Virus record (IMG/VR): IMGVR_UViG_3300017714_002439
Strand: one strand, 5' to 3'
DNA length: 64,000 nucleotides
From: a virus
The number at the start of each line of letters is the position of its first letter. Position 1 is the stretch's first letter. The notes below the pieces were generated by a model. That model did no database searches, was not told the DNA's origin, and worked only from the letters and a program-made list of their open reading frames with translations. The translations under genes were made by a program, and so were the position numbers. This document shows, one piece after another, positions 35,887 through 54,217 of this stretch.

Positions 35887-36909
35887 ATGACAATAGGCAA
35901 GGTAGGTTTTGCATGCAAGTATTTGCATCATGATCAGACACAAAAGAAAAAATTGCTAGAAGAAATACAACGTCCTCTTACAGAAAAAAGCACAACTATT
36001 CGTTGGCTTAACAATCAGGCACGTGATGTTGCAGAGCAACGTTTGTATGATATATTGGTGCATAATACACAAGCAGTTTACAATCTTGTAGAGTATGTAG
36101 GTGGCTTACCAGAACATCAACGTATGGTTCGACTAGGTAGCAATCAGCTTCCTGCCGCAACACATCCAGATTGGAAATACTTTTGGCAAATACCAGAAAT
36201 ACGCGACTATGCTGCTAAATATTATAGTCGTGCAGGTGAGCTTGCACGTGAACTAGGTGTGCGTCTTAGTATGCACCCAGGTCAGTTTGTTGTATTAGCA
36301 AGTGATACACCAGAAATAGTAGAACGTAGTATAGAGGAGTTCGAATATCATGCGGATATCATCAGGTGGATGGGCTACGGTAAAGAGTGGCAAGACTTCA
36401 AGTGTAACGTCCACATCTCAGGCAGACAAGGTCCAGCCGGTATCAAAGCCGCACTTCAACGACTGTCTCCAGAAGCACGAAACTGTATTACTATCGAAAA
36501 CGACGAAAACTCGTGGGGCATTGATGCCTCGCTCGAACTTGAGAAGGAGGTAGCATTAGTTGTCGACATACACCATCACTGGGTTCATAGCGCCGGAGAA
36601 TATATTACTCCAGGCGACGACCGTATTAAACGTATCATTGATAGCTGGCGTGGCGTTAGGCCTGCTATGCATTACAGTGTATCTCGCGAAGACATACTTG
36701 TAGGTCATAGCACTACTGAAAAGCCAGATTACAAATCTTTGCTTGATCAGGGGCATAAGAAAGCCAAATTGCGGGCACACAGCGACTTTATGTGGAATAC
36801 TGCCGTTAATGAGTGGGCAGGTAGTTTCCGTAAAGATTTTGACATTATGGTAGAGGCTAAGATGAAGAACTTGGCTAGTATACCTTTTGAGGAGATTACA
36901 AGTGGATAA
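35887..36909 (+). CDS. uvsE: UV-damage endonuclease
   Basis: VRLGS, RLSMHPGQF, NVHISG, IENDE, VDIHHH, HYS, AHSD, IMVEAKMK. Confidence 0.92.
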   Translation: MTIGKVGFACKYLHHDQTQKKKLLEEIQRPLTEKSTTIRWLNNQARDVAEQRLYDILVHNTQAVYNLVEYVGGLPEHQRMVRLGSNQLPAATHPDWKYFWQIPEIRDYAAKYYSRAGELARELGVRLSMHPGQFVVLASDTPEIVERSIEEFEYHADIIRWMGYGKEWQDFKCNVHISGRQGPAGIKAALQRLSPEARNCITIENDENSWGIDASLELEKEVALVVDIHHHWVHSAGEYITPGDDRIKRIIDSWRGVRPAMHYSVSREDILVGHSTTEKPDYKSLLDQGHKKAKLRAHSDFMWNTAVNEWAGSFRKDFDIMVEAKMKNLASIPFEEITSG

Positions 36910-38471: not shown

Positions 38472-38478
38472 ATAAATA
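38472..38478 (+). promoter_or_regulatory. Late promoter motif at the start of the putative head-cargo cluster
   Basis: ATAAATA 30 nt before ATG 38508. Confidence 0.6.
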
Positions 38479-38507: not shown

Positions 38508-39542
38508 ATGAGATTACACAATTTATTTGAAAATACAACACCTGAATCCTTAATTGAAGATATTATTGATATTGAGCTTACTGATGATTTTGCAATAGAA
38601 GGCAGAATAGTAGAATTCAACGAAGATGGTAGTATTACAGTAGAATTAGATGAACAAGCACAAGAATTAGTAGATCTTGATGAAGAAGTTCTTAACGAAT
38701 TTATACCATTAGCAATTGGTGCCGCGGCACTAGGTTTGACAGCCTATGATGCCTATAGAAATTACAAAGCATACAAGCGAGGTGATATCACTAAACAACA
38801 ATTAGCAAAACGTGTAGGCGTTGATGCTGCAATTGGTATTACAACTGGTGGTATTGGTAAACTTGCAAGTAAGGCATACAAAGCCGGTAAAGCCGGTGTT
38901 CAAGCATACAAGGCCAAAAAAGCGGCTAACGTAACTCCAAATAATGTAGCAAAAGTTGAACCATCTGCACTACCGGCAACAGGCGCAGCGACAGGAAATG
39001 CAGCTGGAAAAACAACTGCAAAGAAAGCCGATGATGTTAAAGCCAAAAAGAAAGCTGCACGTAAAAAAGCAGGCAAAAGACTTCGTAGAGCAGGAATGGG
39101 TGCATATGGCAGTGTAGATTATGATGATCCATTACAAAGAGCAGTAAGCAACTTTTCTTTTGAATCAGAAGATGAATTTGAACCACACATGATGTATGAT
39201 CCTGAAACAGGTGAAGGCAAAATGGCACATACAGAAGCTGATCATTTAAAAATGAAAGACATGGGTTGGACACACGATAATCCAAAAACTAAAGAAATCG
39301 AAGAAGCAGAATACCAAGGACGTAAAGTTAAACTTGGTAAGCCCATGGCAGGTGATGTTAAGAAGTTTAAAGTATACGTCAAGAATCCAAAAGGTAATGT
39401 AGTCAAAGTTAACTTTGGACAAAAGGGTGTTAAGATTAAAAAGAACAATCCTGCAAGACGCAAAAGTTTCCGAGCAAGACACAACTGTGATAATCCAGGT
39501 CCTAGACATAAGGCACGTTATTGGTCATGTAGGAAATGGTAA
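38508..39542 (+). CDS. Putative virion (internal head) modular protein
   Basis: MRLHNLFE leader; amphipathic Ala/Gly helices; basic C-terminal module RKSFRARHNC...ARYWSCRKW (DUF6321-like). Confidence 0.65.
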   Translation: MRLHNLFENTTPESLIEDIIDIELTDDFAIEGRIVEFNEDGSITVELDEQAQELVDLDEEVLNEFIPLAIGAAALGLTAYDAYRNYKAYKRGDITKQQLAKRVGVDAAIGITTGGIGKLASKAYKAGKAGVQAYKAKKAANVTPNNVAKVEPSALPATGAATGNAAGKTTAKKADDVKAKKKAARKKAGKRLRRAGMGAYGSVDYDDPLQRAVSNFSFESEDEFEPHMMYDPETGEGKMAHTEADHLKMKDMGWTHDNPKTKEIEEAEYQGRKVKLGKPMAGDVKKFKVYVKNPKGNVVKVNFGQKGVKIKKNNPARRKSFRARHNCDNPGPRHKARYWSCRKW

Positions 39543-39543
39543 A

Positions 39544-40290
39544 ATGCGTGTCAATGAAATTGTAAGCAAAACATCTATAGAATCTATATTTGAAGATTTA
39601 GATCCAAAGTCAGAAGTATATGTTGACATGGATGGAGTTCTTGCTGATTTCTTTGGCGTATGGAACCAAATGATGGGTGTTAAGCATTGGAAAGAAATCA
39701 AAGACACTGACGCTGCACTACAAAAAATCAAAGATACAAAAGACTTTTGGATTAACTTACCAATGACACGTAATGGTAAAAGTTTGCTAAATGCAATTAA
39801 AAGATTCAAAGGAAAATATAATATACTAAGTGCTCCCCTTCCAGGTGATCCTAATTCAGAACCACAAAAGCGTGAATGGATCCAAAAGCATTTAAGTATG
39901 TTCCCGCCATCAAAAATTATTATAGACCACGATAAGGCCGCATATGCCAAGCAAGCAGATGGAACTCCAAATGCATTAATTGATGATTTTGGACAAAATA
40001 TAAGCAAGTGGGAGAATGCAGGTGGTGTAGGAATACAACACAAAGATATACAAATTGGTAATACTATTTCAAGACTAGCAAAAGCATTAGATACTAAGGA
40101 AGACCCAGTAGAAGAAAACTTTGCTGATGGTAAGAAAAAAGGTAAAAGCAGACCAGGGCGTGTAAAACGTTCAGGTGCAAGTTGTAATGGTAGTGTAACA
40201 GAACTAAGAGCCAAAGCAAAAAAAGCCAGTGGAGAAAAAGCAAAAATGTATCACTGGTGTGCTAACATGAAATCAGGAAAAAAGAAATAA
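39544..40290 (+). CDS. HAD 5'(3')-deoxyribonucleotidase-like protein with N-terminal leader and basic C-terminal module (start revised to 39544)
   Basis: VYVDMDGVLADF, ILSAP, LIDD; leader MRVNEIVSKTSIESIFE. Confidence 0.85.
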   Translation: MRVNEIVSKTSIESIFEDLDPKSEVYVDMDGVLADFFGVWNQMMGVKHWKEIKDTDAALQKIKDTKDFWINLPMTRNGKSLLNAIKRFKGKYNILSAPLPGDPNSEPQKREWIQKHLSMFPPSKIIIDHDKAAYAKQADGTPNALIDDFGQNISKWENAGGVGIQHKDIQIGNTISRLAKALDTKEDPVEENFADGKKKGKSRPGRVKRSGASCNGSVTELRAKAKKASGEKAKMYHWCANMKSGKKK

Positions 40291-41066
40291 TGGATAAAGA
40301 ATTCATATTAAAAAATATGCACGAAAGTCGTAAGGCTCAACGTAATTATTCAGATAAAAAAGTAGACCAAGAAACTGTTGATTTTTTAACAGAGATTGCC
40401 GTTAATGCTCCTAGTAAACAAAACGAAGTAGATTTTACTCTTGCTATTATTACAAATGAAGATATGCTTAAAGAACATGAAGAAAGATTTACTTGGGGAT
40501 ATCACTGGAATACAACTAACAGTGCAATGCATAATACACAAGTTCACGCACCATTGATATTTGTATATGGTCAGACTTTACCAGAAGATATATATAAAGA
40601 TATATGGGCAGCTGATGAAGATGGACCTGGTGTTAATGAAATGTTTGAAGAACAGTTCAGAGATACACAAAATTTATCAATGGGTATTAGTTCAGGGCAA
40701 CTTGTTTTAGCGGCACATATGATGGGATTAAAAACTGGTTTCAGTCAAAATACAATGCACAACGGAGTAGATAGTTTTAGTTGGAAAGAATTTTTAGGTT
40801 ATGATAGAAACGAGTTTTATAGTCCAAAAATAGTAGTAGGCGTTGGATATCCAGATGAAACTTTAAAGTGGCATCAAACTAGAAACTTAGAATATGTTGT
40901 TGCACACCCAGATGAGAAAAACTTAGATACTAAGCCCTATTTAGAAATTTGCAGTGATGATATAAGACAATATCCTAACGGTGATGTATATAGCTTTGGC
41001 CATAAGAGTTCAAAAAAAGATGGCACACCAAAACCCAAAGATGTTAAAGTAAAGAGGTTCTTTTAG
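40290..41066 (+). CDS. Nitroreductase-superfamily protein
   Basis: RKAQRNY, NAPSKQNE, SMGISSGQLVLAAHMMGLKTG, VGVGYP; paralog of 14530. Confidence 0.7.
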   Translation: MDKEFILKNMHESRKAQRNYSDKKVDQETVDFLTEIAVNAPSKQNEVDFTLAIITNEDMLKEHEERFTWGYHWNTTNSAMHNTQVHAPLIFVYGQTLPEDIYKDIWAADEDGPGVNEMFEEQFRDTQNLSMGISSGQLVLAAHMMGLKTGFSQNTMHNGVDSFSWKEFLGYDRNEFYSPKIVVGVGYPDETLKWHQTRNLEYVVAHPDEKNLDTKPYLEICSDDIRQYPNGDVYSFGHKSSKKDGTPKPKDVKVKRFF

Positions 41067-41067
41067 T

Positions 41068-42231
41068 ATGTCACATCCAACAGCATGTTCAAAAAGTTGG
41101 ACAGACGTAAATATAAATTTCAAAAGAGGCAAAATGGGGCATTGCTGTAAAGCTGAATTGCATCCTTTCCCTAATGAATATACAAAAGACTTTTTTACCA
41201 ATAGTGAACTCATTCAAAAACGTAGACAAGACACTCTTAATGGTATTCAACATTCAGATTGTCAAACTTGTTGGGCTGATGTTAACAATGGAATTACTTC
41301 GTTTAAGGATTTGATGAATGAATGGAATAATTTTGATCAGCCAATAGACAAGCCACACATTGAATACATTGAAGTAGAATTAGATAATACATGCGATCTA
41401 AGTTGTTTATATTGTAATGCTGATCAAAGCAGTAAAATTGCACAAGAAGAAGGCATAATAGTTCCTGACATGACACGACAAAAAGATATTGATATTTACA
41501 AAGAGTGGCTAAAAGATATAGTTAATAATTCTCCAAGAAATATAACTTTAGCCTTTATGGGTGGAGAACCTACAGCAAGTAAATTATTTTACGAACTGAT
41601 TGAGTATATTGTAACATTAGATGCCAGTAAACTTACACTACAGGTAACAACAAATTGTAATACCAAAGATTTTCTATTTAATAAATTTTTAGATGCAATA
41701 GATAAAGTGGGCGGTGTAGAAATTAATATCAGTAATGAAAGTTTTAAAGAAGACAGTAAGCTAATTAGATATGGGTTAGATTGGGATAGATTTGAAAAAA
41801 ATGTAAAGGCTTATGCATTACACAAAAAAGTAACCTTCATTAGTTTTGATACTACTATGAATATTCTTGCACTTCCTACATATAGTAAATACATTCAATG
41901 GATTTTTGATACAATGTCAAAATATAATAAACCTTTTAGTATATCAGGCGATATGGTGGTTATTCCAAATGAGTTAGATATAGCAATACTTCCAGCATCT
42001 TTTAAAACTTATATAGACCAGGCAATACAAATAGTTAACGAAAATCAATTACCTAATTGTATATCAAAAGATAAGATTTTATCATTTATGGAATCAGGAA
42101 TAGATCGTGTTAGTTCTAATTATAAAGAAGATTATAAGAATATAGTTAGACAGTTCTTAGAACCAAAACAAAAATATAAAAATACAGATAAACTTATGAG
42201 GTTAATAGACCCACTAGGAGCAATACAATGA
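41068..42231 (+). CDS. Radical SAM protein with N-terminal SPASM/twitch-like domain
   Basis: CDLSCLYC, FMGGEP, N-terminal C..HCC..CQTC. Confidence 0.85.
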   Translation: MSHPTACSKSWTDVNINFKRGKMGHCCKAELHPFPNEYTKDFFTNSELIQKRRQDTLNGIQHSDCQTCWADVNNGITSFKDLMNEWNNFDQPIDKPHIEYIEVELDNTCDLSCLYCNADQSSKIAQEEGIIVPDMTRQKDIDIYKEWLKDIVNNSPRNITLAFMGGEPTASKLFYELIEYIVTLDASKLTLQVTTNCNTKDFLFNKFLDAIDKVGGVEINISNESFKEDSKLIRYGLDWDRFEKNVKAYALHKKVTFISFDTTMNILALPTYSKYIQWIFDTMSKYNKPFSISGDMVVIPNELDIAILPASFKTYIDQAIQIVNENQLPNCISKDKILSFMESGIDRVSSNYKEDYKNIVRQFLEPKQKYKNTDKLMRLIDPLGAIQ

Positions 42232-42455
42232 CACAAGACGACATTTACAGATTACAATATCTTGCAGGTATTATAGACAAACAAGGCACCCGTGTAAGTG
42301 GCACAGATGAATCTAACATAAGTATTGTTGGTAGTGCTAAAGGTGAATACATGCGTAAGCATAATGTTAAGCCAGGCACAGACGAATGGTTTAAACTATG
42401 GTTTAGCAGACCAAAACTAACTGGTGAAGACCCAACACCAAAGCAAGGCGGATAA
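42228..42455 (+). CDS. Small hypothetical protein
   Basis: LQYLAGI; VKPGTDEWFKLWF. Confidence 0.7.
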   Translation: MTQDDIYRLQYLAGIIDKQGTRVSGTDESNISIVGSAKGEYMRKHNVKPGTDEWFKLWFSRPKLTGEDPTPKQGG

Positions 42456-42456
42456 C

Positions 42457-43605
42457 ATGTTAATTAATGAAGTAATTATCTTGCAGGAAGAAACACTAGA
42501 TATTAACTCTATTGTAACACCTGCGATCAAATACTTGGATAAAGTATTTAAAGATAATAACTTCGAAATACGTATTGTCGGCGGCGCAGTGCGTGACATT
42601 GCACTAAACAAAGCACCCAAGGATATTGACTTTGCCTCAGATGCAACACCAGATGAAATGATTGCTATGTTTGATAAAGAAGCAATCAAATACATTCCTA
42701 CAGGTTTACAACACGGAACAATCACCGCAGTAGTAAACGGAGAAGATTTTGAAATTACAACACTAAGAGCAGACAAAGAAACAGACGGCAGACATGCTGA
42801 AGTTGAGTTTGTTCGTAGTTGGGAAGAGGATGCTAAACGCAGAGACTTAACATACAATGCCATGAGCATGGATATTGATGGCGAGCTATACGATTACCAC
42901 AATGGCATGGACGACTTACAAAACAAAGTAAGTAAATTTGTAGGCGATCCAGAACAAAGAATTACAGAAGATTATTTACGTATACTACGTTACTTCCGTT
43001 TCCAGGGCAGGTTAGCAGAACCTACTTGGGATAAAGATACATTACAAGCAATTAAAATGCATGCCAAAGGACTATCCGGTATTAGTGCCGAGAGAATATG
43101 GGCAGAAATGAGCAAAGCACTTTCAGGACAAAATGTTGCAAGTATATTATCAACTATGCATAAAACAGGTGTAGCACAAGTAATAGGATTAAACGTAAAC
43201 AATTTAGGTGCAATAAAAGATGGTGGCAACCCAATTATAGCACTAGCACAACTAGGCAACGATGTAGACATTGCAAAGCGTTGGAAAATGAAAAATACAG
43301 AAGCAGAGTTATTGGGCTTTTTAGTCAAGCACAAAAACGATACACTTGATCAAAAGAAAGTGGAAGATATGATTGCCGATGGTGTTAAGCGTGAGCTTAT
43401 TACAGCACTGGCATCAATGCAAAACAAAAACGTAAACATAGATGCAAAAGTTCCAGACTTTCCTGTAACAGGAGCAGACTTAATTGCTAAAGGCATGAAA
43501 CCAGGCCCAGACTTAGGTAAAAAATTAGCACAACTAAAGCAACAATGGAAGGCTGGTAATTTTAAAGCTAGTAAGGAAGATTTGCTAAATACTAGTAAGG
43601 AGTAA
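42457..43605 (+). CDS. cca: Class II tRNA nucleotidyltransferase (CCA-adding enzyme; start revised to 42457)
   Basis: VGGAVRD, DIDFA (DxD), EITTLR..TDGRHAEVEF, RRDLTYNAM, EDYLRILR, ERIWAE; no PAP I signature seen. Confidence 0.9.
   Translation: MLINEVIILQEETLDINSIVTPAIKYLDKVFKDNNFEIRIVGGAVRDIALNKAPKDIDFASDATPDEMIAMFDKEAIKYIPTGLQHGTITAVVNGEDFEITTLRADKETDGRHAEVEFVRSWEEDAKRRDLTYNAMSMDIDGELYDYHNGMDDLQNKVSKFVGDPEQRITEDYLRILRYFRFQGRLAEPTWDKDTLQAIKMHAKGLSGISAERIWAEMSKALSGQNVASILSTMHKTGVAQVIGLNVNNLGAIKDGGNPIIALAQLGNDVDIAKRWKMKNTEAELLGFLVKHKNDTLDQKKVEDMIADGVKRELITALASMQNKNVNIDAKVPDFPVTGADLIAKGMKPGPDLGKKLAQLKQQWKAGNFKASKEDLLNTSKE
43586..43591 (+). promoter_or_regulatory. Late promoter motif
   Basis: TAAATA before AAGGAG SD and ATG 43610. 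Confidence 0.5.
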
Positions 43606-43609
43606 CACA

Positions 43610-45451
43610 ATGAGAATTACCGAAGTAGACAACCCAGTAACACAGGCTGATATTGATCAGTTAGAAGTGTTTGCTGACCGTTTGTTTGCTAAAGTAGGCA
43701 TTGATGTAGAATTTACTCGACACTTTTTAGACAGAGTCAATGACGAACGTAATGTAAAACAAATTACAATGTCAGAGCTTACCCGACTATTCAAACAAGA
43801 ATACAAACGTTGGGGCAAGCCAATTGCACAATTAGGCCCAGATGCAGAAGCAGTAATGAAAGATATGGCAACAGATATTAACTTGCCATTTGCACTACGT
43901 TGGGACCACCAAAACAAAGAATTAGATCTAGTTGCTAAAACAGTAATGCGTAAACCAGATTTTAAAACATCTAATCCAGAATTTGCAGTAGAAGATATTA
44001 AACAAAGTGGTGCATTAAAAGTTGTTAACAATTTAGCAGCTCGTAGTGGAAATGAAGCATTTCCTATTAAATTTGATAGTGGTAAACTAATTTATGTGAA
44101 GCCAATTACTGCTCGCAAAATTTTAAGACTATTTGATATTGCTCCAAAAGATATGATAGATAAGTTTATGACTTATATTAACACAGCAAATGGATTTAGA
44201 GAATTGGCTCATTATGCAAATAAGAGTGTAAAAGGAACTGTAAAAGAAGATCCAAATGAAGGCTTAAAATCTTTATTTAAACCTAATGCTTATGCGGCCG
44301 CGGCAGCTAGACTGCACAGTGTATTACAACGTAAGAAAAAAGAAAATGACGCAGAAGGCAAGCCATTTAGACATGCACTAGGTTGGTATGCATCTAGAAT
44401 CGCAAGTGGATATCAAGCACATATTGACACAAGAGAATTAGTAGCATACTATCAAGATAATTATGATGCAGTATTAAGTGAAAGTGATTTACCTTATATC
44501 TCTGAAGAAGCCGCACCTAAACTTGATTACGATCAATTAAAAATAAAAATTCCAGCTAATGATAATGTTAAACCAAAAATGGGACAAGTTATTAGTTTAG
44601 ATGATGCACGTGCTAAAGCACAAGCACAATTAAATAGTTTATCGCCTGCAGAGAAAAAAGCTGCAAACCAATTTATTAAAAAAAATCCTAGTTTATTAAA
44701 AAGACTTGCTAACGTAGGAGCAAGGTCAACAGCAAGACATGGAGTTGTTACATTAGGTAGTGTTGCAACAGGACCCATGGCACCAGCTACTATTGTAGTA
44801 TTAAATGTTGCATTATTAGGTTGGGATATAGCAGATATGGGAGTAGAAATTTGGAAATGGTCAAGAGGTGATAAAACTGTTGATGTAGAAATGCCAAGAG
44901 GCAATGTTGATGCAGAATGGGATCCTAACTTACAACTTGAAATACCAGAATATCCTACAACTTGGCCAATGGATAGAACAGGACAAGTATTAAAAAAGAA
45001 GCAGGCAGAATGGGAAAAAGAATTTGGCAAAACACACAAACATGATGGAAAGCCTATTGAAATTCCAGCATTTAAACCATTAGAAATTCCAACCACTTCA
45101 CCAGCTCAACCAAAGAATCCAGAAAATCCGGATAATCCAGAGGTGCCGGACAGCAAACCATCTGATCAGCCAGATATTAAAATTCCACAGCCGCTTAAAG
45201 CACCTCAACAGGACATTCCATTTGTTCCACCAGCAAATGCAACTGACCAAGAAATAGCATTTAAAAAAGATGCATCTCCAGTAGCAACAACTGTAGGCGG
45301 AACTACACCACCGGGTAATGGTAATAGAAATAATAAGAATAAAAAGCGTAAAAAGAAAAAAGATTGGGGATCCGGAGGCGATGTTGATTATGATGATCCA
45401 TTACAGCGTTGGCAGAAGAAATATGGAACATGGGAACCGAGATCCCGATGA
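43610..45451 (+). CDS. Putative virion modular protein with possible RelE/BECR-like N-terminal domain and Pro-rich region
   Basis: MRITE leader; VEFTRHFLDRVNDERN; hydrophobic helices; Pro-rich linker; basic tail. Confidence 0.6.
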   Translation: MRITEVDNPVTQADIDQLEVFADRLFAKVGIDVEFTRHFLDRVNDERNVKQITMSELTRLFKQEYKRWGKPIAQLGPDAEAVMKDMATDINLPFALRWDHQNKELDLVAKTVMRKPDFKTSNPEFAVEDIKQSGALKVVNNLAARSGNEAFPIKFDSGKLIYVKPITARKILRLFDIAPKDMIDKFMTYINTANGFRELAHYANKSVKGTVKEDPNEGLKSLFKPNAYAAAAARLHSVLQRKKKENDAEGKPFRHALGWYASRIASGYQAHIDTRELVAYYQDNYDAVLSESDLPYISEEAAPKLDYDQLKIKIPANDNVKPKMGQVISLDDARAKAQAQLNSLSPAEKKAANQFIKKNPSLLKRLANVGARSTARHGVVTLGSVATGPMAPATIVVLNVALLGWDIADMGVEIWKWSRGDKTVDVEMPRGNVDAEWDPNLQLEIPEYPTTWPMDRTGQVLKKKQAEWEKEFGKTHKHDGKPIEIPAFKPLEIPTTSPAQPKNPENPDNPEVPDSKPSDQPDIKIPQPLKAPQQDIPFVPPANATDQEIAFKKDASPVATTVGGTTPPGNGNRNNKNKKRKKKKDWGSGGDVDYDDPLQRWQKKYGTWEPRSR

Positions 45452-45639
45452 AAATAAAAGACATACTAAAGTTACCCAGTATTGAAATTGGAGATGAGAT
45501 ATTAGTAGGCAAATTTAAAAACCGTAAAGCAGTAGTTACAGGGTTTGCAACAGATGAGAATAATCAGCCTGTGTTAAAGACAACCAAAGGCGATCAAAAA
45601 CTATTCAAGCCAAGAATAGTTAAATTAATGGATAAATAG
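45448..45639 (+). CDS. Small SH3/KOW-like putative virion protein (start revised to 45448)
   Basis: MKIKDILK leader; IEIGDEILVGKFKN; ATGA overlap. Confidence 0.65.
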   Translation: MKIKDILKLPSIEIGDEILVGKFKNRKAVVTGFATDENNQPVLKTTKGDQKLFKPRIVKLMDK

Positions 45640-45643
45640 TTGT

Positions 45644-46633
45644 ATGAAGATATATGATATAACAAATGAAAGCAGTGGTATTAAGAGAGTCAATACAGGT
45701 ATTGACATGAAAGCGGCCTTGGCAGCACGGCAGGCACAAATATCTTCACCAGGAACTAATTCAACTATAAGCAGTAGAACAAATAAGACAAGACATAGTA
45801 ATACAGGCACAGGTACCACACATAAAACATTTCGTAAGTATACATCTCAGATGGGAGACCTAGGTGGATCGTCAGTAAGTAAAGTAAACAATATAAAAAA
45901 ATCAGCAACTGGAGCCACAGGCACTAGCACAAAACGATATGTTAGACCAGGTGGAAGTGGAACACAAACAGTAACCGATGTTGGCACTGGTAAAACAACT
46001 AGAACTGATTTCCAACTAAAAGGTCCACAAAGTTGGGCATACGATAAACCAAAACTAAATGCTTCTAAGAAAATAAAAGAAGATGGTGTAATTGTTCCAG
46101 GTGTTAACACTACAGTAGATGTTAAGCCAGGCGAAACAGAACGTCAAGCTGCAAAATTTGGCAACGGCAAAATTAAACCACTAATGCCTAAACGAGGCAA
46201 GTCACAAACAATCAATACATTGTATAACATGGGATTAGCTGAGTCTAAAAAAGAAGAAAAGCCAGAAGATGTTGAAGGAATTGATCCTGCTACACAAATG
46301 GCAGTAAAAAAATTACAAGCAAAATATCCACATGCAGATAATGTAATGTCAGCAATGTTGGCAGCAACACAAGAAATAGACAAAATACAAGACAACGCTG
46401 ATAGAAAATTATCTGATGCTGACAATAGACATAACCGTAAGTTTCAAGAACTTGAAAGTCAAATAAAAACTTTACATAACCAACTTAGTGATAAACGTAG
46501 AGACGATCAAGATAGAAAGCAAGACGAACAAGATAGGAAACAAGTCGAGATGGATCAACTGCATAATCGTAAGTTTCAAGAACTTGAAAAGAAATTACTA
46601 GACCTTATTAAAAATAATAATCTCAAGGCATAA
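45644..46633 (+). CDS. Putative virion modular protein
   Basis: ATAAATA at 45632-45638; MKIYDITNE leader; S/T/G-rich domain; EDGVIVPGVNTT module; coiled coil with duplicated HNRKFQELE. Confidence 0.65.
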   Translation: MKIYDITNESSGIKRVNTGIDMKAALAARQAQISSPGTNSTISSRTNKTRHSNTGTGTTHKTFRKYTSQMGDLGGSSVSKVNNIKKSATGATGTSTKRYVRPGGSGTQTVTDVGTGKTTRTDFQLKGPQSWAYDKPKLNASKKIKEDGVIVPGVNTTVDVKPGETERQAAKFGNGKIKPLMPKRGKSQTINTLYNMGLAESKKEEKPEDVEGIDPATQMAVKKLQAKYPHADNVMSAMLAATQEIDKIQDNADRKLSDADNRHNRKFQELESQIKTLHNQLSDKRRDDQDRKQDEQDRKQVEMDQLHNRKFQELEKKLLDLIKNNNLKA

Positions 46634-46637
46634 CACA

Positions 46638-47867
46638 ATGTCTAATGTAAAATCATCGGTAAGTCTAACCCCCGGTGAACTATTAACAAATCAATATAAT
46701 AAATCATTCTGCATTAAACCATTTACTGAAATATCTAATTCAGCAACAGGTTCTAGAATGCTATGTTGTCGTAGTGAGCATGTAATCGACAGACACGAAG
46801 TTAACAGTAGTATCACAGAAGATTTTTTTAATCACCCAAACATGAATGAAATAAGAAGAAAAATGCTTGCTGGTGAAGAAGTGGAACAATGCTGGATATG
46901 TAGCGAGTCAGAAAAAGCAAGAGGAACATCACATAGAACATTTGTAATGAAGCAATTCGAAAGGTTAGTTCCTGGATTAGCTGATGATATATTTAAAAAT
47001 GGAACTGTAGATCTAAAATCACTTGATATACGTTTTGGAACCAAATGTAACCTAGCATGTGTAATGTGTGGTCCTGGTAGCAGTAGTTTAATTGCAAAAG
47101 AAGAACAAGACAAAGATTTTGAAGTAGTAGACTTAAATGATTTTTCATTAGATGCTATTAAAAAACATTCAGAAGGTATTGTGTTATTTAAAACAACTGG
47201 CGGCGAGCCTATGTTATTACCTGCATATAAGAAAACACTTGAGTTCTTTGTAGAAAAAGGATACGCAAAGAATATAGAGTTCACAACTATTACAAACGGC
47301 ACAATTGATTACAGCGACATGATGCCACTAATGAACGAGTTCAAACATTTTAAAATTAGCCATAGTATAGATGCTGCTGATGAATCATATAATTATGTTA
47401 GATGGCCAGGAACAATAAAAAGATTACAACGTATACATAAAAGTATATCAAAAAATGCTAAACAATATAAAAATATACAACTTCAATTTGGAGCAACTAT
47501 ACATGTATTAAATGTGCATCAAACAGTAAAGATTGCCAAGTATTTAGAAGAACTAGGAGAGTATGATAATTATAATGCAGACATGGTTTATAAACCTTAT
47601 TATATGCAACCTGGACTGGTACCAAAAGAAGTAATTGACGAGTTAGAGATAGAAGCAATAGAGTGGGCAAGTAATGATGATAGTCATAAAGAAATACTTG
47701 ACTTTGTTAACACTTTACGGTATAATCATAATGCAATAAATAGTAGTATAGAGAAAAAGCAAGAACTACTCAATCAATTAGAAGCCAAAACAATATTTTG
47801 GAAAGAAAAAAGAAAACTTGATGTTCGAGATTATGTTCCGTATTACGAGGTAATGCAATCAAAATGA
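46638..47867 (+). CDS. Radical SAM protein with N-terminal SPASM/twitch-like domain
   Basis: CNLACVMC, TGGEP, N-terminal C..LCC..CWIC. Confidence 0.87.
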   Translation: MSNVKSSVSLTPGELLTNQYNKSFCIKPFTEISNSATGSRMLCCRSEHVIDRHEVNSSITEDFFNHPNMNEIRRKMLAGEEVEQCWICSESEKARGTSHRTFVMKQFERLVPGLADDIFKNGTVDLKSLDIRFGTKCNLACVMCGPGSSSLIAKEEQDKDFEVVDLNDFSLDAIKKHSEGIVLFKTTGGEPMLLPAYKKTLEFFVEKGYAKNIEFTTITNGTIDYSDMMPLMNEFKHFKISHSIDAADESYNYVRWPGTIKRLQRIHKSISKNAKQYKNIQLQFGATIHVLNVHQTVKIAKYLEELGEYDNYNADMVYKPYYMQPGLVPKEVIDELEIEAIEWASNDDSHKEILDFVNTLRYNHNAINSSIEKKQELLNQLEAKTIFWKEKRKLDVRDYVPYYEVMQSK

Positions 47868-48280
47868 AAATACAATTAAAAAGATTAACCACTAAAGATT
47901 TATATAAATTAAGAAGTATAATTGATGAAGAAACTGCTAAATTGGCACAAATTGAATGGCCATTTGAAAGGCATATAGCAATGCAATTTATTAATGACTA
48001 TAACACATGGGGAATATGGATTAATCACGATTCATTAGTAGGCGCAGTAGAAGTAAAAGAAGATTTAGAAACAGCATACTTTATTAAAAAAGGCTGGCGT
48101 AATAATGGAATAGGCACAAAAGCAATTGAACTATGCATAGAAGAATTTGGTGATCAACAACTATGGTGTGTTATTGATCCAGATAATAAAGCAAGTCTAC
48201 GAGTAGCCCAAAAGGGTGGACTAAGAGTCAAGTTTATTGACACTGATAATAACAACGACATAATTACTGTAGTAAAATAG
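47864..48280 (+). CDS. GNAT acetyltransferase (RimJ/RimL-like)
   Basis: WRNNGIGTK acetyl-CoA loop; NKASLRVAQKGG. Confidence 0.8.
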   Translation: MKIQLKRLTTKDLYKLRSIIDEETAKLAQIEWPFERHIAMQFINDYNTWGIWINHDSLVGAVEVKEDLETAYFIKKGWRNNGIGTKAIELCIEEFGDQQLWCVIDPDNKASLRVAQKGGLRVKFIDTDNNNDIITVVK

Positions 48281-48288
48281 AGAATGAT

Positions 48289-48522
48289 ATGTCTAATAAA
48301 AAGATTACTCGCGAAGATTTAACAGCTACAGAAGGTCCTATGAACAATGTTGCTAATGAAGATGCATTGGTTTATGCTAAAGCAGACCCAAATAGGCCAC
48401 TTGATATACACAAAGAACGTCAAGTTAGAGCTAAAAAACAAAAAATAAAGAAAAGTAGTAAGAAAGCAGACCGTAGAATCAATAAAAGTTTAATTAAAAA
48501 TATTAATGAACTTCAAAAATAA
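48289..48522 (+). CDS. Basic hypothetical protein
   Basis: 77 aa ORF in operon. Confidence 0.6.
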   Translation: MSNKKITREDLTATEGPMNNVANEDALVYAKADPNRPLDIHKERQVRAKKQKIKKSSKKADRRINKSLIKNINELQK

Positions 48523-48554
48523 CAGCAAAACAAATCAAATAGATAAATACTAGT

Positions 48555-48749
48555 ATGAAAATATATGATATCATAAAGGAAGAAGCAGACGCAGGTTCTA
48601 CAATGGCAGGTAATGTTGCTAGTGTAAGTTTTCCATTATTTGGAAAAAAGAAGATGATCAGGCGTGCTGTTGATCCAAAAGGATATTTGGGTGACGGTAA
48701 GATTAAAAAGCAATCTACTGGATATAATACGGAGGTTAAGTTAAAATGA
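48555..48749 (+). CDS. Small putative virion protein
   Basis: ATAAATA at 48543-48549; MKIYDIIKEE leader; STMAGNVASV. Confidence 0.65.
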   Translation: MKIYDIIKEEADAGSTMAGNVASVSFPLFGKKKMIRRAVDPKGYLGDGKIKKQSTGYNTEVKLK

Positions 48750-49045
48750 AGATTAACGAAATCCACGAATCAATATACAGTATGAATCCTGAAGAACCTA
48801 TGAATCCTGAAGTATTAATACAAGGTTATGGTAGATTAAATTTAAAACAGTTAGAAGATAAAGTAGGCAAAATGTTCGATGAACTTGCCGAAAGAGCTAG
48901 ACAGGGAGATTGGGAAGGTGTGCAATACAACCTAAACAAAGGACTTGTTCAAGAATTTATTAAAACCATCAATGTAGCATATGATGAGTTAGAACAAAAA
49001 CGAAGACGCGGCGGCAAGAGTAGTCGTGGCATTGAAAAGAGGTAA
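48746..49045 (+). CDS. Small putative virion protein
   Basis: MKINEIHE leader; GGAGG SD. Confidence 0.65.
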   Translation: MKINEIHESIYSMNPEEPMNPEVLIQGYGRLNLKQLEDKVGKMFDELAERARQGDWEGVQYNLNKGLVQEFIKTINVAYDELEQKRRRGGKSSRGIEKR

Positions 49046-49050
49046 CGACT

Positions 49051-50409
49051 ATGAGCAAAGAGCAAAAAATCGACAATACTTTTAACAGAGTAATGGACGA
49101 TATAAACAGACTACAAAAGGCATTTCAGCCAGGCAAGAATTTAGAAAAGGCTATCGCAGAGGTAGGCGGAGATATTTCTTGGTTAAAAGAGATTAACGAA
49201 TCATTTGATAAACTATACGATATGCTTGAAGAAGGGCATATGGGTGCAGTAGCACATTTACAAATGGACGAAGAATTAAGTAAGAAGAAAAAAATTAAAC
49301 CAAACACACCAGTTGGTATGGTAGCAGAAGGCGTATTAGACAGTGATGATGATGACGGGTTTATGGCTCGTAGTCAACTATACTTCTTAGCCAGAGATGC
49401 AATTAAATTGCACAGCGTTATAGATGACAGAGATGACTTGGAACCGTGGGTTGGAAGTAAGATTGCTCAAGCTAGTAAGGATATGGATTCAGTTCGTCGT
49501 TACACTGAATACAATGCCATGAAAGCTGAAGTCGAGCCAGAAGGACAACCAGATGCAGAATTAATGGCTGGTGCATATGAATCACTAGAAGAAGATCCAG
49601 AGCCACGTAAAATGCAAGTAACTAATGCAGATAAAAATGCAAACACAGAAGCATGGAAACGTTTTAAAGCAGGCGATCCTAGATATGAATACAAAGAACC
49701 AGTAAAAGAAGATCCAAGCAAGCCAAAATTTCCACAAGGCGTTCCATTAGCAGGTGATAGTATTTGGTTAAACAGAGATGAAATGCAATATGATGACAAT
49801 GTTGTAACAGTAACTGATCTCAAAACATCTGAAGAAGATGGTATGATTGAAGTATGGGTATACCATACTGCTCCTTGGGAAATTTATACAGACTCAGGTT
49901 TTGCTAAAGCAATTAGTGATATGCTGGGTATTGAAGTTGACTGGAGTGAACAAGGCATGCAAGCACAAGGTGTAGCACACTTAGAAGGTGAACTTGGGTT
50001 AGATGAAGCTATTCGTCCAGTAAGAAGTGCAGCTTCTAAACTAAACCAAATTGGACAAGGCGTTCGTAATAAAACAAATGACGAAACACCAGCAAGTGTT
50101 GGCGAAGGCAAATACGGTAAGAAGAAAAAGAAATACGAAGCTGTAAAAGAAGAAGTAGTTAAGATAAGAGCAGTAAAAGATAAAGAACATTTAAAATTAC
50201 CTACTACTGGCATCAATAGAAAATTTGATGGACCAGATGCAAAAGAGCATGCCGCTACAGCAAAGAAACAATTTGAAAAAGATGGTTATCATGTTGTTTA
50301 CGAAGAGACAAAGTTTGATGATAAGCCGGAACACAGTGAATTAAAAACAGTTGCACAGGACATGTTTAAGCATGCACTAGCACAAGCTAAGAAAAAAGCA
50401 AGGAAGTAA
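49051..50409 (+). CDS. Modular acidic putative virion polyprotein
   Basis: Modules MARSQLY..AIKLH..LEPWV.SKI and IYTDSGF..SEQGMQ separated by acidic linkers. Confidence 0.6.
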   Translation: MSKEQKIDNTFNRVMDDINRLQKAFQPGKNLEKAIAEVGGDISWLKEINESFDKLYDMLEEGHMGAVAHLQMDEELSKKKKIKPNTPVGMVAEGVLDSDDDDGFMARSQLYFLARDAIKLHSVIDDRDDLEPWVGSKIAQASKDMDSVRRYTEYNAMKAEVEPEGQPDAELMAGAYESLEEDPEPRKMQVTNADKNANTEAWKRFKAGDPRYEYKEPVKEDPSKPKFPQGVPLAGDSIWLNRDEMQYDDNVVTVTDLKTSEEDGMIEVWVYHTAPWEIYTDSGFAKAISDMLGIEVDWSEQGMQAQGVAHLEGELGLDEAIRPVRSAASKLNQIGQGVRNKTNDETPASVGEGKYGKKKKKYEAVKEEVVKIRAVKDKEHLKLPTTGINRKFDGPDAKEHAATAKKQFEKDGYHVVYEETKFDDKPEHSELKTVAQDMFKHALAQAKKKARK

Positions 50410-50411
50410 CT

Positions 50412-51113
50412 ATGGCAATAGACCAGTCTTTAGTAATGACTTTTCCAAATAGTCAAGGTGATGTAGAAATCTACATGCCTGAAAATACTAGAGTATTGGT
50501 AAAATGTAGTGGTGGAGCAGATTCGAGTATACTTTTGTATATGTTAGCAAAATACAGACATGAGTATAATCCTACTGTTAGTTTTATAATTGCTACTTCA
50601 GTTAATCAGCAATTGCCATATCAATATATACATGCTAAAAAAGTAGCTGACTATGTTAACGAAATATACCCAATGGGTGACTACGAACATCATCAAAATG
50701 AGAATAGAGGTGGAGAATTTTATCCAAGCGATCAAGATTTTCTTACAGAACCATTAATGAAAAAGTCAGATAAACTATATATGGGTTTAACACTTAATCC
50801 ACCCATTGAAGAAATGAAAGCACATAACATGTATGATGATTTAAGAATGGAAGACCGAGACCCAGACAGTGAAAACATTTGGGAAGTAGGTGAAAATGAA
50901 TTATCAGAAAACAACTGGAGACATAACCGTCCTTTTGTAAGACATGACAAGCGTGGAATTGCAGAGTTTTATGATTTGCTAGGAGTAAGAGATACATTAT
51001 ATCCATTAACTAGAAGTTGCGAAGAAAAAACTACAGACTTTTCTAAACATTGCGGAACATGTTGGTTTTGTTTAGAACGTGAATGGGGTTTTGGGGAATT
51101 AGAAGGAAAATAA
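50412..51113 (+). CDS. QueC-like PP-loop protein
   Basis: CSGGADSS PP-loop; TRSC...HCGTCWFCLER zinc site. Confidence 0.7.
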   Translation: MAIDQSLVMTFPNSQGDVEIYMPENTRVLVKCSGGADSSILLYMLAKYRHEYNPTVSFIIATSVNQQLPYQYIHAKKVADYVNEIYPMGDYEHHQNENRGGEFYPSDQDFLTEPLMKKSDKLYMGLTLNPPIEEMKAHNMYDDLRMEDRDPDSENIWEVGENELSENNWRHNRPFVRHDKRGIAEFYDLLGVRDTLYPLTRSCEEKTTDFSKHCGTCWFCLEREWGFGELEGK

Positions 51114-51114
51114 A

Positions 51115-52893
51115 ATGAAAGCTAAACAATTAAACGAATTTAACAAAGTAGATTGGGAAGAAAACGAATCAGTGAATCTTCACAGTGAAAATGCATTAGA
51201 GCTTGCTAAAGAATTTGGAACCCCAGAAGAAGTAGAAGCAATGCAAAGAATTATGGATCAGCACATGCGTAGAGGACACATTCTACCACATGAAATTGAA
51301 GAGCGTAATGCATTAACATCAAAATATTACAGCATGTTAGAGCATTCAGTTAACCCAACGTTTAGATCAACATTAGAAGGCTACAAAGTTATGCCTACAA
51401 TGGATCCTAAGTATATAGCACGTGATGGACTGGAAGGTCCATTTAGCACATTAAGTGGTAAGGTTGTTTATTATGATCCTAAAGAAGGTTCATACTACGA
51501 TCCAGACACAGACATGTATATGTCATATGATGAATTTCAAAAGTATGATAACGATTACAGTGATATGAAAGAAGAATCAGACCAAGGCTTTAGTGGAAAA
51601 GAGAGAAACTTTATACATGACTTGTGCATGATGCACGATGGTGTTAAAAGAGATCCAGCAGGATTAAAATATCTTGGAACATCTGAAACATGGGATGAAG
51701 GTAATTGTTTAAGTGACAAAGGTAAATTAACTACTCTAATGCTTTGGGCTAACAAAAACAAAGACGCTGTTGAAAAACGTTTTTCACGTATGTTTAATAA
51801 CTATAGCAACAAAGATGAAAATGGAAAAGTAACAGCATCAGATGGTAATCAACTGCTTAATGACATTACTAGTAAGATTGGTAGCATTGGTGAACAAACT
51901 GTAAAAGGCCCAAGAGGACATTTACGTTCTATTGTTGCTGACGACCTTAACGAAATAGATTGTTGGGATGGTTACAAAAAAGACGGAACTAAGCCTGGCA
52001 CAGGTAAAAACAAAGGCAAGCGTGTAAACAATTGCGTTAAAGAAGAAGATGTTACAGTAGATAATGCAGGTAACATCGCAGGCTACTTAGCTACAATAGA
52101 TGAGTATGTAGAAATGTTAGCAGATGCCAATTCTCACTATGATAGAGATGAAGCAATGGATTCACATACAGTTAAAGAAATAGCATATAGAATTCAAAAC
52201 GCTGTAGACGACATTAGAATGAGAGAACTTGGATTAAAGCCAAGCAATATTAGATCTAAATTTAATGAAGACGAAGTAAATGAAGAACACGATATAGGTT
52301 TACTTAAAGCAGTTGCAAGACAAATGGAAGCAGATGCACACAAAGGTGACTATACTGCTATAGAAGAATTATTACAAAATATCTCAACAGAAGAATTAAA
52401 AGCATTCCTTTCTGATCACAGAGATATAGATTTTAGTGAAGAAGAATTGAATGAACTTGGATTTTCTGCACCAGTTGGAGCTGCTGGCAAGACCAGTGGA
52501 TATGCTCCTCCATCTACACACACTATATCAAGTAGATCAAGTTTATCTGCTAAACAAAAAAGAGATGGTAGTCAATCAGAAATCTTTACACAGTATGCTG
52601 ATGATTTTCAACACGATGGTGCCGACAGAGGAAGAAGCACTATGTCAGATGTATCAATACAAAAATATGATGCAGATGGAAAGATGACTAAAAATGATTC
52701 ATACAACAGATTTGTAATGCCAGGCGGTGCGGGTATTGATACAACAAATGGTGTAACAAAAAATATACAAATGAAAGGTCCACAAAGCTGGGCATATGAT
52801 AAACCAAAATTACCAAGAATAAAAAGAGAAGGCAAATACGTTAGCGATGCACAACGCAAAGCGGTTCATGCCTCAAAAGCGGAGAAAAAATAA
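51115..52893 (+). CDS. Modular putative virion polyprotein
   Basis: MKAKQLNE leader; modules LEGPF..YYDPKEGSYYDP, CWDGYKKDG..NNCVKEE, KYVSDAQRKAVHASK. Confidence 0.65.
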   Translation: MKAKQLNEFNKVDWEENESVNLHSENALELAKEFGTPEEVEAMQRIMDQHMRRGHILPHEIEERNALTSKYYSMLEHSVNPTFRSTLEGYKVMPTMDPKYIARDGLEGPFSTLSGKVVYYDPKEGSYYDPDTDMYMSYDEFQKYDNDYSDMKEESDQGFSGKERNFIHDLCMMHDGVKRDPAGLKYLGTSETWDEGNCLSDKGKLTTLMLWANKNKDAVEKRFSRMFNNYSNKDENGKVTASDGNQLLNDITSKIGSIGEQTVKGPRGHLRSIVADDLNEIDCWDGYKKDGTKPGTGKNKGKRVNNCVKEEDVTVDNAGNIAGYLATIDEYVEMLADANSHYDRDEAMDSHTVKEIAYRIQNAVDDIRMRELGLKPSNIRSKFNEDEVNEEHDIGLLKAVARQMEADAHKGDYTAIEELLQNISTEELKAFLSDHRDIDFSEEELNELGFSAPVGAAGKTSGYAPPSTHTISSRSSLSAKQKRDGSQSEIFTQYADDFQHDGADRGRSTMSDVSIQKYDADGKMTKNDSYNRFVMPGGAGIDTTNGVTKNIQMKGPQSWAYDKPKLPRIKREGKYVSDAQRKAVHASKAEKK

Positions 52894-53171
52894 TGGGTAT
52901 ATTAAGCGATACAGTAAACGAATCTAAGAAAAATTGTGGATGTGGCAAAGACCCATGTGAAACATACGGTAAGAAAACAGACGAATCATATTCTCCAGGT
53001 GATGAAATGGAAGATGGCATGGTAAGTAATTGCTGTGGCGCTCCAATCATGGACGTTTATGACGGACACGGTAGATGTAGTGATTGTAAAGAAATGGCAA
53101 GTGCTGAAAAAGAAGAAGCATACTATGAAACTGCCGAAATACAAAGATTAAAAGATCTAATTAGGTATTAA
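52893..53171 (+). CDS. Small Cys-rich (zinc-binding) protein
   Basis: CGCGKDPC and NCCGAP..CSDC. Confidence 0.7.
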   Translation: MGILSDTVNESKKNCGCGKDPCETYGKKTDESYSPGDEMEDGMVSNCCGAPIMDVYDGHGRCSDCKEMASAEKEEAYYETAEIQRLKDLIRY

Positions 53172-53182
53172 GGAATAACAAG

Positions 53183-54217
53183 ATGAGATTACACCATTTA
53201 TTTGAAGACGAGAATGTCAAAAAAGAAATCATTGCAAAAGTAAGTGGACTAGTTGCTGACAATGAAGAAGATGCAAAACTGTTAGATAAAATATACAGAA
53301 CTTTGCACAATACAGACATTTCAGGTAAGGTTGCACAAGCATTTGCAGTTCCTACTTCAGATGATAATATTAATCTTGAACCATTACTTAAACAACTAAC
53401 ACAAATTATTTTCCACGCAGGTGTTGATTATAAAAGCCTTGACGCATTCCTTAACAGATTAGCAAAAGGTAACGTTGTAGACGTGCCTGTTCTTACTACT
53501 CCTGGAGTAGGAAGTGTAAGAGCGTTCTTTGGCGGTGATGAAACTACTACAAAAATATTTCAAGCAATGGCAACACTAGGCGCAGGTAAAAAGCAAAAAG
53601 GCCCAGGTGAATATGCACTTGCAATGTTATCAAATCAAATTAAATTAAAACATGATGGTGGCGATCTTGATGTTGCAGGCAAAGGTATAGAAGTAAAAGC
53701 AGAAACTACAACAGGTGGTGGACGTCTTGGAGAAGGTGGACCTACTAACGCAGTTGCAAAAGAATATTGGAGCCAAGTTCCAAGTATAGCAAATCACTTT
53801 AATCAAGGTTCAAAAGGACTTGGTATTAAAAACTTTGTTCAAGCATTAGCATTAGACTTACCGTTAAATGATCCAGAAAAGAAAAAACAAAGACAAGATT
53901 TACTTACAAAATGGTATAGTCAGTTGTTTCCAAATGCAGCACCATTTGTTCAAGCATTTATGCAAGACGATGGAGTAGTTGCAGAAAAAATGTATGGTAA
54001 AGCAAACTTTGAATCTTACAAAAACAACTATGGATGGGACGGATTATTAAGTATTAACTTCCCTTCACTAAAATACGTAATGGTCAACACAGGTGATGAC
54101 TTTGTTAGAATGAAAGAAGCAGGACATTTTGGTAGCTTCTCAATTAGTGTTGTGCCAAGCAGTGCAAGACCATCAGAAGTATATTGTCAATTAAGTTTAA
54201 CTAAAGCAAAAGCATAA
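53183..54217 (+). CDS. Putative PD-(D/E)XK nuclease-like protein with leader
   Basis: MRLHHLFE leader; GPGEYAL..GGDLDV..GIEVKAE. Confidence 0.55.
   Translation: MRLHHLFEDENVKKEIIAKVSGLVADNEEDAKLLDKIYRTLHNTDISGKVAQAFAVPTSDDNINLEPLLKQLTQIIFHAGVDYKSLDAFLNRLAKGNVVDVPVLTTPGVGSVRAFFGGDETTTKIFQAMATLGAGKKQKGPGEYALAMLSNQIKLKHDGGDLDVAGKGIEVKAETTTGGGRLGEGGPTNAVAKEYWSQVPSIANHFNQGSKGLGIKNFVQALALDLPLNDPEKKKQRQDLLTKWYSQLFPNAAPFVQAFMQDDGVVAEKMYGKANFESYKNNYGWDGLLSINFPSLKYVMVNTGDDFVRMKEAGHFGSFSISVVPSSARPSEVYCQLSLTKAKA

Follow-up and report, generated by a model that had tools for sequence, protein, structure and literature searches.

The internal proteins of bacteriophage T4 are diverse and have only a capsid-targeting sequence (CTS) in common (PMC3012670). 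This N-terminal sequence, MKTYQEFIAE (PMC8442874), contains two residues that target the protein (positions 4 and 7) and two that direct its processing (positions 8 and 10) (PMC9026906). T4-type prohead proteases, such as gp21 of T4, cut with Glu at P1 and often with Ile, Leu or Val at P3 (PMC9026906, PMC5694885), and the internal proteins are basic (PMC9026906), with lysines that contact DNA (PMC3012670). In the phiKZ-like phages SPN3US and 201phi2-1, many inner-head proteins are cut after Glu by a gp21-like protease, and paralogues share their N-termini (PMC5694885). Polyvalent proteins combine, in one polypeptide, much shuffled domains of disparate activity, with signature LPD or effector domains, and their packaging and injection have been predicted (Iyer et al. 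2017, PMC5512222). Here we describe a locus at nucleotides 38508-54217 of IMG/VR virus record IMGVR_UViG_3300017714_002439 (64,000 nucleotides (nt); "the window" refers to this whole stretch) in which unrelated proteins begin with one short N-terminal tag. With moderate confidence, we read this tag as a T4-type propeptide, an address and/or cleavage site, marking head-packaged cargo.

All sizeable open reading frames (ORFs) of the window lie on the plus strand, and its GC content is ~35%. The DNA polymerase encoded in the window shares 42-50% identity with its counterparts in Phosso, Atu_ph07, GAP32 and RaK2, giant phages of the T4 superfamily. No DNA-level match to region 38508-54217 was found among cultured phages by megablast, nor any match in cultured phages by tblastn for the protein encoded at 53183 or the 63-amino acid (aa) protein encoded at 45448 (genes are named here by their first nucleotide; Table 1). 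Close relatives were taken from IMG/VR: the mosaic contig G001 (126.7 kb, nucleotide identity 86-95%) and contigs G006 to G010 (109-222 kb), whose DNA polymerases are 72-93% identical to that of the window. These six and the window form a set of seven contigs (~1.05 Mb in total) on which the genome-wide counts below are based. The CheckV completeness of the contigs, 30-60%, implies genomes of ~350 kb for the relatives. We regard region 38508-54217 as a fairly probable cargo locus, hypervariable in content, of a jumbo phage of marine origin that is uncultured and belongs to the T4 superfamily. No paper describing such leaders was found in the literature on marine or RaK2-type giant phages, and the phiM9 paper makes no mention of the homologue.

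The N-terminal tag and its distribution

The initial annotation listed ten N-termini of this locus as sharing a leader, and every one is found at the start position it gave. Three of these starts (39544, 42457 and 45448) are ATG codons within longer ORFs that open with TTG or GTG; these ATGs lie at the stop of the preceding gene or 1-4 nt from it, and orthologues in the relatives start at the same Met. A search pattern derived from the window, ^M[KRL][ILVA].[DENQH][ILVF], matches 10 of the ~22 cluster genes and none of the ~75 other genes of the window (p = 5e-8). Across the seven contigs, in which the syntenic cluster adjoins the DNA polymerase gene, the pattern is found in 63 of 164 cluster genes and in 11 of 1341 genes elsewhere (odds ratio 75, p = 1.6e-54); these enrichment p-values overstate independence because the pattern came from the window itself and the relatives share ancestry. 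Matrices built with one genome left out at a time place the cluster genes cleanly on top. The tag is concentrated in the cluster. Tagged proteins encoded outside it include a zeta-toxin-like P-loop kinase, a DUF6267 protein and an enzyme resembling cytidylyltransferases.

Each genome carries 10-14 tagged genes gathered in one locus; many of those in the relatives are not orthologous to the ten of the window, and ~35 different first modules stand behind the tag. The tagged proteins are 63-1085 aa in size, folded enzymes among them, and have a median isoelectric point (pI) of 9.06, compared with 5.73 for the comparison proteins (p = 2.7e-12). Consistent with the first description, the interleaved enzymes carry no leader, namely the nitroreductase-like protein (40290), the two N-terminal-twitch (N-twitch) radical S-adenosylmethionine (SAM) proteins (41068 and 46638), the GNAT acetyltransferase (47864) and the QueC/PP-loop-like enzyme (50412).

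The consensus of the 63 leaders is M-[KR]-I-N-[ED]-[ILV]-[IFL]-x-E, with I-N-E/D at positions 3-5 and Glu frequent at positions 8-9. Its core, [ILV]-x-Glu, agrees with the cutting rule of T4-type (S77) prohead proteases. The tag is selected at the protein level, as codons vary while residue classes are kept: AGA, AAA, AAG, CGT and TTA occur at position 2, GAA, GAC, GAT, CAA and GAG at position 5, and TTA, ATA, GTA, ATT and ATC at position 6. Orthologous CCA-adding enzymes likewise have differing leaders of one pattern (MLINEVIILQEE, MRIGELLIYEE and MKIFEVTEVKD). Chance from composition, nucleotide-level conservation and simple paralogy were also weighed as origins of the tag and set aside.

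Boxes resembling late promoters precede several of the tagged genes. Four leader genes had been placed directly behind TAAATA motifs, a layout that is exact for 45644 and 48555 and approximate for 43610 and 38508. In the seven contigs an ATAAATA box lies within 45 nt upstream of 20 of 63 tagged genes, compared with 126 of 1442 other genes (p = 5.5e-7), and of 2 of 110 untagged cluster genes. The tagged genes may be expressed late.

Likeness to T4 propeptides and Glu-ended joints

A matrix made from the 63 marine leaders was scored on 278 predicted T4 ORFs, with one extra residue allowed after Met. The highest-ranking ORF was gp24 (MAKINELLRE), followed by Alt (MELITELFDE) and gp2, with alt.-1 seventh and gp68 ninth of 278; known gp21 substrates outscore the remaining T4 ORFs (p = 2e-4). 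In T4, gp24 is the vertex protein cut by gp21, Alt is packaged and injected, and gp2 is a packaged DNA-end protector. The likeness is to the gp24/Alt type of propeptide, because the CTS type of the internal proteins ranks only 46-47. The sequences of T4 ipII and ipIII were checked and carry MKTYQEFIAE.

The tag and the gp24 and Alt propeptides share a position at the extreme N-terminus, a length of ~10 residues and a hydrophobic-x-Glu-hydrophobic core that is followed within a few residues by another x-x-Glu, and the two T4 proteins are a head protein and a packaged, injected enzyme. Unlike the tag, both T4 sequences have an extra residue after Met and lack Lys or Arg at position 2. T4 has the motif on few proteins, whereas the marine phage has it on 10-14 per genome in one locus; cleavage and packaging, demonstrated in T4, are proposed for the marine phage. 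The tagged proteins follow the same concept as the T4 internal proteins, in which unrelated, mostly basic proteins have nothing in common but an N-terminal address of ~10 residues ending in a gp21 site, and their genes lie in plastic loci apart from those for the head (PMC3012670, PMC9026906). However, the leader sequences differ, and the marine cargo proteins are larger, with enzymes among them as well as multi-module mosaics that contain internal joints.

Similarity to the other described systems is partial. The ejection proteins of phiKZ-like phages also have propeptides with a short motif ending in Glu, but these propeptides are mostly longer than 100 residues, their motif is A/S/G-x-E, and they belong to another lineage without a compact tagged locus. 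Polyvalent proteins share the mosaic build of reshuffled modules, and one tagged protein of G006 carries LPD23, a polyvalent-protein domain; no LPD, PBECR or other signature domain of this class was found by Pfam in the window proteins. The marine mosaics differ in that small modules are joined at Glu sites fitting a prohead protease, while polyvalent proteins are processed by built-in metallopeptidase domains.

A T4-type head module was identified in G007, consisting of genes for a portal protein, two proteins of 64 and 306 aa, an S77 protease (52867-53505; PF03420, 6e-26), a scaffold-like protein and Gp23 (1e-83). Prohead protease and Gp23 were not found in G001, G002, G004 to G006 or G008 to G010, all of which are fragments. 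Head modules were taken from 80 relatives, in 21 of which the small post-portal protein is recognizable; its start fits M[KR]xx[DE][ILVF] in 15 of the 21, compared with 1.4% of other genes (p = 1.4e-21). Other starts in these modules are ..NLFEN or SELLES in the major capsid protein, ..TLFEN in the scaffold protein and ..LREHL in the protease. A predicted complex of the G007 protease with a 99-aa tagged protein scored 0.01, which carries no weight either way.

The long tagged proteins have a mosaic build, and their modules turn up again in different combinations. Where a module stands behind the leader in one genome and internally in another, a site of this kind also comes just before the internal copy (the slash marks the joint). 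At residue 278 of the 51115 protein, the internal joint ..DDLNE/IDCWDGY corresponds to the start MKINE/IDCWDGY of separate genes in G006 and G010. The 48746 module (MKINEIHE/SIY) is internal in G007, G008 and G009, behind ..SVNE/K, ..EQNE/S and ..PATE/S. A joint of the form [IV]-x-E-D/GVIVPGVNTT is found in five genomes and compares with the leader form MKVNEIVTEQ/GVIV, and ..SIFED/L in the window nucleotidase compares with ..SILED/V within a CCA-NT5C fusion in G006. By their residues, the mosaic joints appear to be internal, Glu-ended sites fit for cutting by a prohead protease.

Proposed packaging as cargo and alternative explanations

The likeness to gp21 substrates, the start of the small head-module protein, the Glu-ended joints, the basic composition of the proteins, the late-promoter-like boxes and the S77 protease in a close relative speak for packaged cargo, and the initial interpretation is partly supported. 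The initial annotation had proposed that the leader acts like the T4 CTS as a programmable loading tag, packing unrelated enzymes and polyproteins into the head for injection. A short, T4-like tag on unrelated proteins and mosaics fits all tests run, while the CTS it cited was of the wrong type, gp24 and Alt being the nearer models; a "programmable loading tag" is what we infer. It is probable that the capsid takes up the tagged proteins and that they are delivered along with the DNA. Their targeting, cleavage, packaging and delivery are all proposed by analogy with T4, and the role of the tag may be cleavage rather than targeting.

As envisaged, the tagged proteins would be made late and would join the prohead core via the tagged N-terminus, where the prohead protease would trim them after Glu and would cut the long mosaics at the equivalent internal joints. 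Lys/Arg-rich stretches would keep the products with the DNA, and the products would enter the host together with the genome. Among the candidates for such cargo are the 5'-nucleotidase, the CCA-adding enzyme and several mosaic proteins, as well as a probable PD-(D/E)xK nuclease.

Several points weigh against packaging. The CTS of the internal proteins is unlike the tag, with T4 ipII and ipIII at the ranks given above and IPI at 74 of 278. Prohead protease and head genes are absent from the window and are seen only in a relative with 74% DNA polymerase identity, and the locus adjoins replication genes rather than head genes. The nucleotidase, the CCA enzyme and the kinase are ordinary enzymes without a known need for packaging. 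The motif [ILV]-x-E is short and common in Glu-rich, Ile-rich proteins, the "tag" of the 63-aa family may belong to its fold, and the relatives share phylogeny, so that the counts are not independent.

Alternatively, the tag could serve in docking to, or recognition by, some non-capsid partner, for instance a chaperone of the phage, an enzyme complex or a site on the membrane, with the proteins acting unpackaged in the infected cell. In favour of this, the tag is selected at the protein level, the cargo includes intracellular enzymes (NT5C, the CCA enzyme, the zeta-toxin-like kinase and the cytidylyltransferase-like protein), and the locus lies next to replication genes. Docking leaves unexplained, however, the match to T4 gp24 and Alt, the start of the small head-module protein, the Glu-ended joints and the basic composition, and we consider it unlikely.

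Quite improbable is a system like that of ribosomally synthesized and post-translationally modified peptides (RiPPs), in which the tag would be the recognition or modification site of the interleaved radical SAM and GNAT enzymes, with one maturase for many leader-sharing substrates. Two N-twitch genes and a GNAT gene do lie in the cluster, and one radical SAM gene and the GNAT gene are kept there in the relatives. However, the N-twitch family (NF033640) has at least 12 copies above the cut-off in G001 and 9 in G007, mostly off-cluster in stretches without tagged genes, and T4 is without this family although its gp24 and Alt bear the motif. The copies within the cluster of different relatives are ~25% identical, the same as to off-cluster copies. 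The tagged proteins, at 63-1085 aa and with folded enzymes, are not short precursor peptides, and the tag is without the Cys, Ser or Thr typical of such targets. Neither short precursors nor substrates specifically linked to one maturase, as a RiPP-like system has, are seen.

The tag could also be an N-terminal degron read by phage Clp machinery that times protein destruction, since the window encodes a ClpA/B-type unfoldase and an M17 aminopeptidase and the relatives have an ORF judged ClpP-like by eye. Met-basic-hydrophobic starts are among the known ClpXP N-terminal signals. A degron would have no evident use in destroying late proteins and leaves unexplained the Glu-ended joints, the likeness to T4 head propeptides, the head-module protein and the basic tails; we give it little credence. 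Least probable of all is that the pattern reflects mRNA-level or initiation constraints rather than a protein signal (early codons kept A/T-rich in late or leaderless transcripts, or the binding site of a translational regulator), for although the favoured codons are A/T-rich (AGA, AAA, ATA, AAT, GAA) and two genes have an identical leaderless layout, the tag is missing from 54 other genes that have TAAATA no more than 6 nt from the ATG, synonymous and conservative codon variety at the motif positions is high, and the motif also occurs at internal protein joints, where initiation plays no part.

Composition of the locus and significance for marine jumbo phages

The features of the locus are listed in Table 1.

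Table 1. Genes and promoter-like boxes of the proposed cargo locus, with the neighbouring DNA polymerase gene, in window coordinates.
Feature	Position	Strand	Remarks
ATAAATA box	38472-38478	+	ends 29 nt before ATG of 38508
Tagged protein, 344 aa	38508-39542	+	start MRLHNLFE; pI 9.4
Tagged NT5C 5'-nucleotidase, 248 aa	39544-40290	+	start MRVNEIVSKTSIESIFE; PF06941 4e-7, phrog_2643 1.5e-26
Nitroreductase-like enzyme, untagged	40290-41066	+	window-specific insert
N-terminal-twitch radical SAM, untagged	41068-42231	+	NF033640 6e-57
75-aa protein	42228-42455	+	degenerate start MTQDDIY; G006 orthologue starts MKIDEIY
Tagged class II CCA-adding tRNA nucleotidyltransferase, 382 aa	42457-43605	+	start MLINEVIILQEE; PF01743 1.7e-34, phrog_2244 2e-65
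TAAATA box	43586-43591	+	ends 19 nt before ATG of 43610; then AAGGAG
Tagged mosaic protein, 613 aa	43610-45451	+	start MRITEVDNP
Tagged basic protein, 63 aa	45448-45639	+	start MKIKDILK; conserved in 7/7 contigs
ATAAATA box	45632-45638	+	exactly 5 nt before ATG of 45644; leaderless late layout
Tagged mosaic protein, 329 aa	45644-46633	+	start MKIYDITNE; KGPQSWAYDKPKL motif and GVIVPGVNTTVDV module
N-terminal-twitch radical SAM, untagged	46638-47867	+	NF033640 3.6e-74; paralogue at same position in every relative
GNAT acetyltransferase, untagged	47864-48280	+	kept in cluster of six contigs
Very basic protein, 77 aa, untagged	48289-48522	+	pI 10.2
ATAAATA box	48543-48549	+	exactly 5 nt before ATG of 48555
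Tagged protein, 64 aa	48555-48749	+	start MKIYDIIKEE; fused to next module in G007
Tagged protein, 99 aa	48746-49045	+	start MKINEIHE, then SIY
Charged protein, 452 aa, untagged	49051-50409	+	conserved in all relatives
PP-loop/QueC-like enzyme, untagged	50412-51113	+	window-specific
Tagged mosaic protein, 592 aa	51115-52893	+	start MKAKQLNE
Cys-rich protein, 92 aa, untagged	52893-53171	+	
Tagged protein, 344 aa	53183-54217	+	start MRLHHLFE
DNA polymerase, 897 aa	55682-58375	+	

Behind the tag, the 38508 protein contains an acidic stretch, a hydrophobic segment, a Lys-rich stretch, the motif VDYDDPLQR and a C-terminal DUF5754/phrog_7595 domain. This last domain (C-terminal 80 aa, 39300-39542) is a small mobile domain conserved to an unusual degree, with up to 95% identity in more than 600 IMG/VR contigs; it is found in pelagiphage podoviruses, siphoviruses and myoviruses, in roseophages and in spindle-shaped viruses of Nitrosopumilaceae. 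The NT5C protein has its enzyme domain from about residue 25 and a basic, Cys-containing tail at the C-terminus. This tail (40130-40290; ..GKSRPGRVKR.GASC.GSV..LRAKAKKASGEKAKMYHWCANMK.GKKK) recurs almost unchanged behind an unrelated domain of the 43610 type in the metagenomic protein P0062, and is apparently a portable C-terminal module. In the CCA-adding enzyme the head domain starts at residue 38.

The 43610 protein carries at residues 10-128 a highly conserved domain ending in ..EFAVE, after which come variable modules, a segment of hydrophobic residues, a stretch rich in Pro and Lys, and VDYDDPLQR. Metagenomic homologues of its N-terminal domain number more than 2,000; the structure model of this domain is poor (predicted local distance difference test (pLDDT) 52.6), and an Atlas search with it returned only unnamed viral clusters. 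VDYDDPLQR is common to the C-terminal parts of the 38508 protein (39130-39160) and the 43610 protein (45400-45430), and KGPQSWAYDKPKL to the 45644 and 51115 proteins; both are short conserved motifs amid variable stretches.

Invariant residues E143, D161 and E170-x-K172 in an alignment suggest a PD-(D/E)xK nuclease core in the 53183 protein, and the nuclease reading depends mainly on these residues. Its structure model (pLDDT 73) had no Foldseek match and gave weak VIA rows for MspI and HinP1I (Z 4.3-4.5).

Among the untagged proteins, that encoded at 50412 combines a PP-loop ATPase motif (SGGADSS) with a C-terminal Cys cluster like that of QueC; in NCBIfam its top matches, to the TilS N-domain and to QueC, both fall far short of the cut-offs. 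The N-twitch radical SAM family is much expanded, with many copies in arrays (G001 51-75 kb, of 127 kb) and none in T4 or the Methylophilales phage Melnitz. In every relative one such gene adjoins that of a protein with the GVIVPGVNTTVDV.PGETERQAAKF module (46638-47867 with 45644-46633 in the window; G006 67027, G007 193759, G008 126939 and G009 132686), which hints at a specific enzyme-substrate pair in the cargo locus. Elsewhere the window encodes a ClpA/B-type double AAA+ unfoldase (21899-24208), an M17 leucyl aminopeptidase (31120-32463), an ATP-dependent DNA ligase (34706-35815) and a UvdE UV endonuclease (35887-36909), and the ORF with a ClpP-like N-terminus in the relatives was judged by eye only.

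Leader-like starts are also present on three proteins of Melnitz (MZ577097, 3984-8363), a cultured member of the Kyanoviridae. These are an NT5C homologue (MKSIVEVTSINEEE), a 131-aa protein (MKNFKNHIAEE) and a homologue of the 43610 domain with an annotated TTG start (KTFLQFEQ). Melnitz is a possible culturable test system for leaders.

More tentatively, with somewhat less than even confidence, we propose that a hydrophobic-x-Glu N-terminal code extending from T4 gp24 and Alt to marine jumbo phages serves as a plug-in address and cut site, by which ~10 codons would suffice to load any gene product, and that the enzyme kit so delivered is reshuffled between relatives at the protease joints. The principle is known from T4; what is new is the distinct consensus, the scale (10-14 tagged genes within a single plastic locus), the presence of enzymes as cargo and the occurrence of protease-type joints where shuffled modules meet. 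The consensus tag and the protease could be tested directly and put to use for protein packaging, and one virion proteome would suffice as a test.

If the plug-in reading is true, virions would bring in, before phage genes are expressed, a ready set of enzymes consisting of a CCA-adding enzyme for tRNA repair, a nucleotidase, a nuclease, a kinase and an NMNAT-like enzyme. If the packaging reading holds, the loading of capsids by means of a short tag would extend beyond T-even phages as a general and evolvable device of the T4 superfamily, which marine giant phages, themselves abundant, would use on a much larger scale. A role as cargo accompanying the DNA would fall to a large block of "hypothetical" genes, and tRNA-repair and nucleotide enzymes would act at the first moments of infection, probably against host defences.

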